Positions 3,188-13,436 of a DNA stretch of 64,000 bases are shown here, piece after piece. Source of the stretch: Nitrosopumilus sp. (GTDB lineage Archaea > Thermoproteota > Nitrososphaeria > Nitrososphaerales > Nitrosopumilaceae); NCBI GenBank assembly GCA_965205675.1, contig OZ242186.1:416001-480000 (forward strand), read 5' to 3'. A program made the position numbers and the translations under genes. The first letter of the stretch is position 1. Every line of letters begins with the position of its first letter. Below the pieces are notes generated by a model. That model saw only the letters and a program-made list of their open reading frames with translations. It was not told where the DNA came from and did not search any database.

Positions 3188-3199
3188 AGAATTTATATT
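3188..3199 (+). repeat. attL core AGAATTTATATT
   Basis: Identical to 13425-13436; lies at host/element boundary. Confidence 0.7.
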
Positions 3200-3342
3200 T
3201 GATATGAGCGATCTATGGTCAGAATTTTAACATGACGGAATAGCTTTATTAGGCATTGACACAATCAACAGAAAACATTGAACCACTCAGAGAACCAAAA
3301 CCACAAAAACAATTCAAAATTTAACAAAGTCCACAAACTACA

Positions 3343-3368
3343 ACCTTAGTGCAAATTTGCACTAAGGT
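3343..3368. repeat. 26-bp perfect palindrome ACCTTAGTGCAAATTTGCACTAAGGT
   Basis: Read directly from sequence. Confidence 0.9.
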
Positions 3369-3389
3369 CAACAACTAAACGACATAACA

Positions 3390-3450
3390 AGACGTTATGA
3401 CCATCAGTCTGGAACGCCCGAAGGGTGTTACGACTGAGGAAGGAACGTCT
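3390..3450 (-). other. Long interrupted hairpin (AGACGTT/AACGTCT, TCAGTC/GACTGA, apical C-UUCG-G on minus strand)
   Basis: Three nested complementary segments in an otherwise AT-rich non-coding region. Confidence 0.6.
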
Positions 3451-3548
3451 CAAAATACTCTAATCAAAAACAAAAAAAGGCTAGTTCAAAGACGAACTAA
3501 CTTGACTGTCAAACACTGTTACCAGACATAAATCATAATTAAAAATCG

Positions 3549-3619
3549 TGGACCTGTTGGGAGTTGAACCCAAATCTCCTAGTTCTTACTTAGGTACGTG
3601 ACCGTCACGCTACAGGCCC
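3549..3619 (-). ncRNA. tRNA-like cloverleaf (non-canonical; nominal anticodon AAG)
   Basis: Acceptor GGGCCUG/CAGGUCC-A, D arm GCGU/ACGU with GG, anticodon arm CCUAA-GUAAGAA-CUAGG, 4-nt variable loop, T arm UUGGG-UUCAACU-CCCAA. Confidence 0.75.
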
Positions 3620-3711
3620 ACAAAGTATATTAAAAAACACTAAACTAATAATGTTAGTTCTTACTTAGGTTAGGCCAACGCGCTAATCTCTTTTTTCTAT
3701 TATCAAAATAA

Positions 3712-11602: not shown

Positions 11603-11760
11603 TTTTTAGAAGCCTCCAAATTTTCAAGTTCACGACGAACCACAGAGGAAATATAATCAGAAACATTACGATAAAGAGAATCAGATTTCTGTGTCTCTTT
11701 TTCTATTCTGTTCACTAAATTTATTGGCAATTGAACAGGCTTCCAATTAGTTCGATTCAT
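11599..11760 (-). CDS. Ribbon-helix-helix regulator (53 aa)
   Basis: Manual translation MNRTNWKPVQLPINLVNRIEKETQKSDSLYRNVSDYISSVVRRELE. Confidence 0.8.
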   Translation of the reverse strand: MNRTNWKPVQLPINLVNRIEKETQKSDSLYRNVSDYISSVVRRELENLEASKK

Positions 11761-11836
11761 GTAATAGTATTGTAATACACATTATATAAAAACTGTTACA
11801 ACACTATTACAACCTAACTTGTAACAAATTTATAAC
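11760..11836. promoter_or_regulatory. Divergent promoter/operator region
   Basis: 16-bp inverted repeat TGTAATAGT(A/G)TTGTAA at 11760-11775 and 11796-11811 flanking a TATA box; further TTGTAAC next to TTTATA. Confidence 0.7.
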
Positions 11837-11859
11837 ATTTCAAAGGAAAAATACAAAAT

Positions 11860-12270
11860 GTGCTTAAAACCATGGTAAGAAAAAAGAGTAATTCAGGATG
11901 GAGACCGGTACAGCTTCCTAAAGATTTAGTAGACGAAGTAGAAAAAGTGATTGAAACATCAGAAGTTAAAAAAACAGGTGTTACAAGCATAAGTCAATTT
12001 ATTTCAAGAATCATAGATGATCATTTAGAATCATCCAGATTCTCTCATCAAAACACCTATGAGGATAAGGTAAGAATACTAGATAACAAAATAGGTAAAC
12101 TAGGAGATATTGTAACAATATTCCTAAAAGAAGAATTGAAGAAAGGATTTTGTGATTATTGTGAAAGTGAGAACTGTGTACACGTAAAGTACATGTGGGA
12201 ATTAGAAGATGTTGTTAAAATTTTGAAAAAAAGAGGTTTCCAATCACCATATAACGAACCATCAAAATAA
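11860..12270 (+). CDS. RHH regulator with C-terminal CxxC-x4-CxH zinc motif
   Basis: WRPVQLPKDLVDEV..SISQFISRII; CDYCESENCVH. Confidence 0.8.
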   Translation: MLKTMVRKKSNSGWRPVQLPKDLVDEVEKVIETSEVKKTGVTSISQFISRIIDDHLESSRFSHQNTYEDKVRILDNKIGKLGDIVTIFLKEELKKGFCDYCESENCVHVKYMWELEDVVKILKKRGFQSPYNEPSK

Positions 12271-12309
12271 AAGACATTTAGTTTCCAGGTTCCAGTCAAT
12301 ACAAGGCTT

Positions 12310-13377
12310 TTATTTTTTCAACTCAAACATCAGTTTTCTCATTTCATACTGAATCATTTCTTTAACTTCTTCTTTAGCAACGTGTGTTTTTTCCAATTCT
12401 TCATTACGTTTAGTTATTTTATCAAGCTCCAATTGCTTTCTTAGAGAACCATCAACGGTTAATTCGGGAACTGCTTTTTTGAATTCTTCAAACAATTGTT
12501 CAATAGTCGGGTCAAGATAAACATTATCCAACACAACAGTAACAGAATGACCCATCATTTTCTCTGCAAGTGAAATATTCAGGTCATGAGTAGTTTTCAG
12601 AATAGTATTAAATCGTTTTCTAAATCCATGATCAGCTTGTTTATTGTATCTCACACCCGTTTTGACCTGATTGATTCTCAATCCTGTTTTGTTGATAAGC
12701 AATCGTGTGATTTCTTGTAGTGATGATCTGGTACTAGGTTTGACCTTAGCAAATCCTACATTATACGATGAACGAAATGCAGGACTTTCAGGAGTTATTT
12801 TTTCTCCATCAGATTCTCTTTTCTGTATATAAGCATCAAACATTTGACTTGCTTCAGGTGTTAGAAATGTAGTATACTCATCAACAGTTCCTTCATAAAC
12901 CAGGACCGATTTGCAATCTTCAATCTGATTAATGTTTCTTAGTTTGATATCTTGTAATGCACCTATTCTAATTCCTGATGATGCGATAAAATGAATGAAT
13001 GTTTTAGTTCGTAATTTAGTCGCAAAAGAAACCATTTTAGCCACCTCTTCAGTAATCCATGCCTCACCGCCTGTCTTTTTTATTCTTGCAGGCTTAAGCC
13101 TGTTAATTTTACTCCATCTCAATTCTATATCATTACAGTCAAAAAATGCCTTCATTGACGCAATTGGTATATTTATTGAGTTGGGAGACATTGTTTTTTT
13201 AAGATACATAACAAAATCTTCCATCATAATTTGTAATTTTTCTTGAGGTATCGTTATTAATCTATCATAGTCTTCTATCTCAAAACATTTGAGAAATTTA
13301 TCCAAATGTCTAACATATGTTTTTCTTGTTTCTTCCGACTTGATAGAATTCTCAAAAATTAACATACTTCTTTGCAT
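12310..13377 (-). CDS. Tyrosine recombinase/integrase
   Basis: SGIRIGAL (R), HGFRKRF (HxxR), MGH...Y catalytic set. Confidence 0.95.
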   Translation of the reverse strand: MQRSMLIFENSIKSEETRKTYVRHLDKFLKCFEIEDYDRLITIPQEKLQIMMEDFVMYLKKTMSPNSINIPIASMKAFFDCNDIELRWSKINRLKPARIKKTGGEAWITEEVAKMVSFATKLRTKTFIHFIASSGIRIGALQDIKLRNINQIEDCKSVLVYEGTVDEYTTFLTPEASQMFDAYIQKRESDGEKITPESPAFRSSYNVGFAKVKPSTRSSLQEITRLLINKTGLRINQVKTGVRYNKQADHGFRKRFNTILKTTHDLNISLAEKMMGHSVTVVLDNVYLDPTIEQLFEEFKKAVPELTVDGSLRKQLELDKITKRNEELEKTHVAKEEVKEMIQYEMRKLMFELKK

Positions 13378-13424
13378 GTCATATTATAAAAAACGGAACT
13401 ATTTTAACCAAATAATGTCAGGTT

Positions 13425-13436
13425 AGAATTTATATT
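13425..13436 (+). repeat. attR core, overlapping probable BRE/TATA box of downstream gene
   Basis: AGAATTTATATT ends 24 nt before ATG 13461. Confidence 0.7.

Follow-up and report, generated by a model that had tools for sequence, protein, structure and literature searches.

The window analysed here is a 64,000-nucleotide stretch of the genome of Nitrosopumilus sp. (assembly GCA_965205675.1, contig OZ242186.1, positions 416,001 to 480,000), and coordinates below refer to the window unless stated otherwise. Near its left end lies an insertion that probably represents an integrated, cryptic, rolling-circle plasmid-like element of 10,237 bp. The element is bounded by a duplicated attachment (att) core and has intact genes for a tyrosine integrase, a predicted HUH-type replication initiator (Rep) and an ATPase. 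Integrase-bearing and att-flanked, and without the signature gene set of a virus, a casposon or a conjugative element, it has the make-up of a cryptic integrated element.

The insertion and its attachment sites

Comparison with relatives, and not the statistics of the repeat, decides the boundaries of the element. The 12-bp sequence AGAATTTATATT stands at 3188-3199 (attL) and again at 13425-13436 (attR), and the two cores are identical at 12 of 12 positions. Taken alone this repeat is weak, since matches with at most one mismatch number 5 in the window against 2.63 expected for a 12-mer in a genome of 34% GC. The exact 12-mer has two copies in the whole 2,011,361-bp genome, both at the ends of the element. 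The right flank was searched in 41 genomes (the organism's own and 40 relatives) and found a match in 36, and both flanks were then aligned to the 30 loci returned. Homology to the left flank stops at 3199 in 19 of these loci, homology to the right flank begins at 13425 in 20, and in each locus the two alignments overlap by the 12 core bases. All 20 empty-site junctions inspected read ...CATTAC AGAATTTATATT ATATCC..., that is, the left arm of attL, a single core and the right arm of attR, with the core exact in 18 of them and carrying one mismatch in 2. In the same 20 of 20 loci, the genes for a pterin-4a-carbinolamine dehydratase and a PTPS-family protein, which flank the element in the window (2877-3155 on the left and 13461-14276 on the right), are adjacent, with the single core between them. 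Because the congener flanks join across one copy of the core, 3200-13424 is an insertion into the Nitrosopumilus chromosome, of 10,225 bp, or 10,237 bp as a circle that includes one core; it occupies the intergenic region upstream of the PTPS-family gene. A flanking core that is duplicated here and single at empty sites is what a tyrosine recombinase leaves behind.

A preliminary description of this DNA, made from its letters alone, had proposed an att-bounded unit of 10.2 kb, and had considered that relatives lacking the element might not join at the repeat. The junctions confirm the unit, and the relatives join exactly there. The layout almost entirely on one strand, also described at that stage, was found as well: every sizeable open reading frame (ORF) lies on the minus strand except the one at 11860-12270, on the plus strand. 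No compositional signal sets the element apart, its GC content being 0.339 compared with 0.337 for the genome.

Integrase, Rep and ATPase genes

The integrase gene (12310-13377, minus strand) encodes 355 amino acids (aa). The protein matches Pfam PF00589 at 34 bits (cut-off 27.1) and the PHROGs integrase family phrog_1 at 1.1e-14, and it matches the XerA, XerC and XerD models at 9e-15 to 4e-9, which is under the cut-offs of those models. The residues R137, H250, R253, H277 and Y287, read from the sequence, compose the catalytic pattern R..HxxR..H..Y.

The Rep gene (8651-10744, minus strand; 695 aa from the ATG at 10738) encodes what by its sequence appears to be a genuine rolling-circle initiator of the HUH type with a zinc finger, belonging to the family of SNJ1 RepA. 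Rep matched no Pfam or PHROGs family, gave a single chance-level match in NCBIfam (E 0.025), and found no PDB sequence either by phmmer or by the family profile, and ten long homologues of Rep likewise hit no Pfam family. A profile built from the 8 close relatives of Rep collected 1073 cluster representatives at E<=1e-3. Across 108 aligned members H312, H328, H330, Y371, H375 and G389 are invariant, while five Cys ahead of the HUH motifs, H269, S273 and R315 are nearly so. The resulting layout is H-x15-HxH...YxxxH, in which a zinc Cys cluster is followed by the motif-I-like strand NHLVVSVPK, then SPHLHILG, then VRYLLSH. This is what would be expected of an HUH nuclease that has a zinc cluster in front and a third His for metal binding. 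In the AlphaFold (AF2) models, which are confident, with a pLDDT of 85.3 over the full length and 91.8 over the core (residues 155-420), the core is built as beta-alpha-beta-beta-alpha-beta-alpha. The conserved His are placed on a long beta-hairpin, with the HUH motif SPH328-L-H330-ILG on predicted strand 323-335, and Tyr371 on the predicted helix that follows (362-373). This Tyr aligns with that of YALSH in SNJ1 RepA and is the predicted catalytic residue.

The decisive result was the hhalign comparison of a 95-member Rep family profile with SNJ1 RepA (98.8%, E 1.3e-16), which spans 205 columns from the Cys cluster to YxLSH, and on this ground Rep was assigned to the SNJ1 RepA family. A tblastn search with Rep gave in addition a weak match to the beginning of a Halobacterium plasmid of 11.6 kb, and the same family profile aligned with the protein of the first gene of that plasmid at 99.3% (E 4.5e-20). 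When the Rep core was compared by Foldseek with the predicted viral structures of BFVD, 46 matches at E<=1e-3 were obtained, the best at 4.8e-6; most of them are nameless, and the 4 that have a name are all microvirus proteins called 'Replication initiator protein'. The language-model Atlas returned Cressdnaviricota clusters and one cluster with Rep_1 on 20% of its members, which we take as a lead and nothing more. The preliminary description had called this ORF an HUH Rep, and had envisaged that it might lack an HUH fold. The profile match and the invariant HUH and Tyr motifs uphold the call and place the protein within an HUH family; in the fold comparisons the named viral matches are microvirus initiators, and solved structures gave none at E<=1e-3.

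The ATPase gene (3712-5484, minus strand) encodes a 590-aa P-loop protein with its Walker A motif at residues 10-17. It scores above the cut-offs, weakly, of three Pfam families typical of type IV coupling proteins (TrwB_AAD_bind, 29.3 bits; TraG-D_C, 23.9; T4SS-DNA_transf, 22.9). It has 33 homologues, and a profile of 31 relatives finds in the PDB DptH (2.6e-7), HerA, IcmO/DotL, TrwB (5e-5) and FtsK (1e-3). HerA and DptH score equal to or better than TrwB and IcmO/DotL, and the assignment that is firm, as far as sequence comparison goes, is that to the FtsK/HerA superfamily alone, which is also how the preliminary description had classified the protein. With Walker A starting at residue 10 the ATPase begins at the P-loop and has no upstream hydrophobic segment that could serve as the membrane anchor of a coupling protein, and no partner secretion channel was found inside the element. 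The C-terminal ~190 aa are conserved and have no family match.

Relatives and accessory features

A Nitrosopumilus metagenome-assembled genome (G425; loci L052, L054 and L055) holds a ~44.7-kb element whose boundaries are a 15-bp repeat located at the 3' end of tRNA-Met. This element has in common with that of the window both Zn-finger ORFs (51% and 55% identity), Rep (72%), the ORF downstream of Rep (81%), orf172 (60%), orf72 (64%), orf339 (62%) and the ATPase (82%), and also the iterons, the left-arm hairpin and the tRNA-like gene described below. Its integrase is merely 29% identical to that of the window, and several insertion sequences are present. The retention of these modules alongside another integrase and a tRNA-Met site shows modular evolution of mobile elements.

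The Rep core was found in 52 of 401 Nitrosopumilaceae genomes, the host included and two of them (G243 and G132) unpublished, and most of the matches are proteins of ~330 aa. We examined 20 kb around 15 other Rep-family genes from this family of archaea. A homologue of the window element's integrase lies near Rep in 8 of the 15 loci, within ~4 kb in seven and ~7 kb away in L076. By ARAGORN, 8 of the 15 stretches contain a tRNA gene, which directly adjoins the integrase in 3 of the 8 loci with such a homologue (L066, L069 and L076). No ATPase homologue was found within ~10 kb of Rep in any of the 15. Judging from this survey, small integrated elements of this kind form a family with integrase and Rep as its recurrent core, and the ATPase module would be an add-on of the sub-lineage to which the window element belongs. 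A scan of metagenomes yielded one 3.7-kb contig, which lacks the ORF downstream of Rep. Contigs from three public sequencing runs (X1-X3), at a depth of ~1000-4000 compared with 9-26 for the contigs of this organism, contain diverged versions of 3190-3716 and 12147-12254. These high-depth contigs cover the left arm, the region of the tRNA-like gene and a part of the 136-aa ORF, suggesting that a relative which co-occurs and is more abundant has a related element.

Upstream of the ATPase gene lie orf339 (5503-6522, minus strand) and orf72 (6461-6679, minus strand; 72 aa), and the G425 element has the homologue of orf72 directly upstream of that of orf339, which in turn adjoins its ATPase gene. 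The 339-aa protein forms a very narrow family, always encoded upstream of the ATPase, with 4 members including itself in a search of 5.8 billion proteins, and it matches nothing in Pfam, PHROGs, NCBIfam or the PDB. Fused ATPase relatives of 966-1001 aa exist, and orf339 was considered as a split N-terminal domain of the ATPase. This was rejected, as neither BLASTP nor hhalign detected homology with the extension of the fused relatives and three in-frame stops separate orf339 from the ATPase gene.

At the other end, the putative Rep operon opens with a 53-aa ORF (11599-11760, minus strand) whose stop overlaps the next start. It is followed by a 55-aa Cys-rich, Zn-finger-like ORF (zn55; 11435-11602, minus strand), whose homologue has the same place in the G425 element, and by orf111 (11103-11438, minus strand; 111 aa), for which neither a family match (Pfam, PHROGs, NCBIfam) nor a homologue in the G425 element was found. 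A 72-aa Cys/His-rich ORF (10728-10946, minus strand) stands just upstream of Rep, and its homologues in G425 (55% identity) and in L062 (53%) are also upstream of Rep. Divergent from the operon is a 136-aa ORF (11860-12270, plus strand), a candidate regulator like the 53-aa ORF, with a 63% identical homologue in L064 that neighbours both an integrase and a gene of the Rep family. The RHH label given to both, for the 136-aa ORF on account of its N-terminus, was a reading of sequence pattern and was not retained, the Pfam, PHROGs and NCBIfam libraries and the PDB search giving no match to either.

Downstream of Rep, the frame of a small ORF (8322-8647, minus strand) is open from 8647. Its homologue in the G425 element is a 110-aa ORF started by ATG; here AAT replaces that ATG, and the sole canonical start, a TTG, leaves 61 aa (8322-8507). 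This ORF matched no Pfam, PHROGs or NCBIfam family, its 110-aa form in G425 matched no Pfam family either, and the Atlas returned unnamed viral clusters alone. It had been called SSB-like, a name for which no detectable family speaks and which is attached to a copy without its canonical start. The next ORF (7867-8040, minus strand; 57 aa) has three chromosomal paralogues at 50-60% identity. The label AbrB-like that it had received was rejected, since hhalign gave 0.3% probability against the AbrB/MazE protein gp15 of SNJ1 and no family or PDB match was obtained. Altogether, integrase, HUH Rep and FtsK/HerA-superfamily ATPase are the labels that stood, and RHH, AbrB-like and SSB-like found the support of no tool.

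The region 7541-7866 contains iterons and is a candidate double-strand origin. A 157-bp tandem duplication at 7555-7848 includes three 35-nt units that bear the palindrome TTGTTTGCAACAA, and the unit is kept in the G425 element as 4.8 perfect 32-bp copies. Beyond it lie orf172 (7022-7540, minus strand; 172 aa), which has no family match in Pfam, PHROGs or NCBIfam, and a dispersed repeat of ~120-130 bp (6737-6866) resembling a miniature inverted-repeat transposable element (MITE). Some 19 further copies of this repeat, at 81-87% identity, are present in the genome, and the depth of the public-run contigs is raised in its bin. The repeat overlaps the ORF at 6803-7018, so that part of what had been presented as small hydrophobic ORFs is a genomic repeat. 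A stretch related to the repeat lies in L052 (12565-12669), where a transposase ORF of an insertion sequence starts. On the plus strand, opposite to the genes of the element, 8123-8211 is a candidate C/D-box small RNA with C, D', C' and D boxes and a 7-bp terminal stem (AAATGGC/GCCATTT); its Rfam matches to three C/D families are just at E 0.2-0.6, and its 3' half resembles a chromosomal stretch near 566,0xx of the host genome.

The left arm of the element (3200-3547) is conserved and non-coding, with a perfect hairpin at 3344-3367, and blocks of it are kept in the G425 element and near 541 kb of the host genome. It is followed by a tRNA-like gene (3548-3619, minus strand; ARAGORN; Rfam tRNA 47.6 bits) with the anticodon AAG, no long variable arm, G3:U70 and A73. 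Further intact copies are in G007, G410 and the G425 element, which makes 4 of 401 genomes by pattern search with the host included and G425 found separately. A split copy with the anticodon GAA lies at ~541 kb of the host genome. Besides that of the window, the family, which has a class-I shape, comprises copies at L055 6705-6776, L059 1472-1543, L061 1483-1554 and L079 10137-10208. Across these five copies the cloverleaf is 92.4% paired, compared with 32-48% in slid controls, and 8 of 21 pairs have changed on both sides, which none of 500 shuffles reached. All 4 intact copies retain G3:U70, and covariation is seen at the neighbouring pairs 5:68 and 6:67. Position 73 is A in three of these copies and G in that of G410, pair 31:39 is unformed in every copy, and the acceptor stem differs from those of the host tRNA-Ala genes in one pair. 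At a distance of ~75 nt upstream (3655-3670) the anticodon arm is directly repeated as a half copy, its 5' strand and loop, and this half copy varies between elements in parallel with the gene.

G3:U70 is an identity mark of alanine, and archaeal leucyl-tRNA synthetase requires a long variable arm. CTT codons are aligned with Leu of homologues in 14 of 16 cells for Rep and in 22 of 28 for the ATPase, homologues that were themselves translated by the standard code, which makes the count circular wherever they have CTT too. The RNA may be an alanine-charged reader of CUU, a decoy, or a recombination or nick site. A gene with alanine marks and a leucine anticodon, confined to mobile DNA or its vicinity, is an unexplained side finding. 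The host genome also has several odd genes of 83-89 nt with long variable arms, called Phe(GAA) by ARAGORN, near 1.26, 1.79 and 1.86 Mb, and the G425 element has a comparable gene just within its right end (L055 10668-10750). The tRNA-like gene of G410 is near an ORF with a Cys-rich N-terminus and a 324-aa ORF next to it (L078 6527-8174); that the former is TFIIB-like and the region that of a conjugative element is a guess, prompted by the 2019 survey of thaumarchaeal elements (Krupovic et al., 2019), for which Pfam gave no match in support.

Mode of life and relation to known systems

We infer that the element can be excised and replicated. The integrase would recombine the two cores and release a circle of 10.2 kb. 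Rep would be produced from a translationally coupled operon composed of the 53-aa regulator, the Zn-finger ORFs, Rep itself and the small downstream ORF, and would bind the iterons at 7541-7866. Tyr371, held by a metal site of His312, His328 and His330, would then nick one strand and so prime rolling-circle replication, which host enzymes would carry out. The divergent 136-aa and 53-aa ORFs may set the switch between the integrated and the replicating state, and the ATPase with its constant 339-aa partner might move DNA in partition, transfer or packaging. The preliminary description had proposed an excisable, replicating plasmid or a non-lytic virus. What we retain of this is the rolling-circle, integrative, plasmid-like element; for the echo of a virus no hallmark was found.

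Several observations weigh against this reading. Three public runs contain the element, in the form of assembled contigs, which drop rare forms and hence say nothing on activity; one such contig bridges attR in the integrated state, and neither a circle nor an empty-site joint of this organism is listed among them. Foldseek found no solved structure at E<=1e-3 for the full Rep model or for its core, the top matches being ferredoxin-like folds, with RepB of pMV158 and the Rep of tomato yellow leaf curl virus at E~0.1. The origin and the nick site are guesses, and the folds proposed for the small putative regulators are read from pattern. There are, finally, signs of decay: the ORF downstream of Rep has no canonical start for its full frame, the MITE-like repeat sits within the element, and a truncated sister copy is present 58 kb away in the same genome (G000:C1:358055-359062). 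This copy, 98.5% identical to 3601-4609 and truncated at either end, extends over the C-terminal half of the ATPase and the leader and includes 19 nt from the beginning of the tRNA-like gene. These signs, among which the start codon is lost relative to G425, and the contigs, in which the integrated form alone is seen, would suit a defective relic, once mobile and now fixed and decaying, whose genes look intact and are inactive. We regard this as somewhat unlikely. The two cores are still identical at every position, comparison with homologues shows integrase, Rep (695 aa), orf339 and ATPase to be of full length, and the absence of the element from all 20 congener sites inspected suggests a recent arrival.

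An element mobilised by conjugation is an unlikely alternative, and one that overlaps with the plasmid-like element that we prefer: the HUH protein would act also or mainly as a relaxase, the ATPase would be its coupling protein, and the channel would be encoded elsewhere. The ATPase does exceed the gathering scores of three coupling-protein families, and TrwB and IcmO/DotL are among the solved structures that its profile detects. In bacteria, mobilisable islands encode a Rep-like relaxase together with a coupling protein of their own. In the host genome a VirB4-like gene (613 aa; P-loop_TraG, DUF87, AAA_10) and a VirD4/TraG-like gene are adjacent at G000:C1:~1319600-1322800 (L081), ~900 kb from the element, and in the passages of the survey that treat conjugation such a pair is the signature of thaumarchaeal conjugative elements (Krupovic et al., 2019; PMC6563490). 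On the other side, the absence of an ATPase homologue from the 15 other Rep loci indicates that Rep works without the ATPase, the ATPase starts at the P-loop without a membrane anchor, and the SNJ1 homologue of Rep is annotated as a replication initiator. The same passages report no relaxase for thaumarchaeal conjugative elements, and archaeal conjugation is presented as having no known one (Krupovic et al., 2019). A bolder form of the idea, which we consider quite improbable, is a self-contained archaeal mobilisable unit in which the HUH protein is both relaxase and initiator and the anchor-less ATPase and orf339 deliver the nicked strand to the VirB4/VirD4 apparatus. If true, this would be the first candidate relaxase and coupling pair in archaeal conjugation.

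Least probable, and in our view very improbable, is the provirus of a non-lytic (pleomorphic or filamentous-like) virus with structural proteins too divergent to recognise: a genuine virus, SNJ1, does have its initiator in the Rep family, whose predicted fold resembles that of microvirus initiators, some viral genomes are packaged by FtsK/HerA ATPases (Krupovic et al., 2019), and several ORFs (orf339, orf172 and orf111) are without assignment, but the ATPase matches coupling-protein and HerA families and not any packaging family, Rep and the ATPase have no relatives in viral contigs or phage records, part of the supposed membrane ORF stretch is a genomic repeat, and no capsid, morphogenesis or packaging hallmark was found in those searches or by PHROGs, which was applied to 10 ORFs, with the ATPase, zn55, orf72 and orf71 excluded, and matched the integrase alone. 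The resemblance to filamentous or extruded viruses suggested in the preliminary description found no support in these searches.

Among characterised initiators, SNJ1 RepA (AY048850, 'rolling-circle replication initiation protein RepA') is about 21% identical to Rep, and the Cys cluster, the motif-I-like strand, HxH and YxLSH align over 205 columns. SNJ1 itself is an icosahedral virus of 16.5 kb, and of its genes for capsid and packaging none was found in the window element. The SNJ1 RepA family is reportedly related to IS91 transposases; the Pfam model Zn_Tnp_IS91 reaches E 0.05-0.25 on SNJ1 RepA and the Halobacterium protein and finds nothing on the window Rep. Microviridae initiators of the gpA/VP4 type are the best structural matches to the Rep core (E 4.8e-6 to 1e-3, TM 0.3-0.46) and share its motif order, HUH followed by Tyr. 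They differ in that there is no match at the level of sequence, and Rep has one Tyr and then a His (YxxxH) instead of two Tyr, with a Zn-binding Cys cluster in front. The Halobacterium litoreum plasmid mentioned above (NZ_CP089467, 11.6 kb) has a Rep-family member as its first gene, which shows that the family drives free small plasmids, and all 25 of its genes are annotated as hypothetical. In actinomycete elements of the pSAM2 type and in bacterial mobilisable elements, ~10 kb hold a tyrosine integrase, small regulators, a rolling-circle Rep and an FtsK or coupling-type ATPase. The parts list of the window element resembles theirs in outline, though its host is an archaeon.

We know of no plasmid or vector for ammonia-oxidising archaea. 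An element of 10 kb whose att sites are precisely mapped, and for which an initiator and a candidate origin can be named, offers a concrete starting point for one, an aim already voiced in the Discussion of the 2019 survey, where small thaumarchaeal integrated elements are proposed as future vectors (Krupovic et al., 2019). That survey was the sole relevant paper found in a search of the literature on Nitrosopumilus, rolling-circle replication and integrases. It catalogues 74 integrated elements in 20 thaumarchaeal genomes, with a median att of 17 bp and 15 of 68 targets intergenic. In the part of it that concerns cryptic elements, one of these, NitAQ6f-E2, is the sole element in the 20 genomes whose rolling-circle initiator is a homologue of SNJ1 RepA. 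The window element resembles the cryptic elements described there, and NitAQ6f-E2, in its small size, tyrosine integrase, short att (12 bp), intergenic target and SNJ1-RepA-type initiator, and like the cryptic elements it has no hallmark set of a virus or of conjugation. It stands apart from NitAQ6f-E2, as far as that element is characterised there and with its gene content left aside, by a long Rep (695 aa, with extra N- and C-terminal domains), the coupling-type ATPase and the tRNA-like gene. In contrast to the one Rep element reported from 20 genomes, the Rep core occurs here in 52 of 401, about 1 in 8 Nitrosopumilaceae genomes, and its family has 1073 representatives, none of our scans having matched it to Pfam, PHROGs or NCBIfam. 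In this lineage, elements of the rolling-circle type therefore seem to be far more common than the single case in that report. The window element is best read as a member of a class already described for Thaumarchaeota in 2019 with one such Rep.

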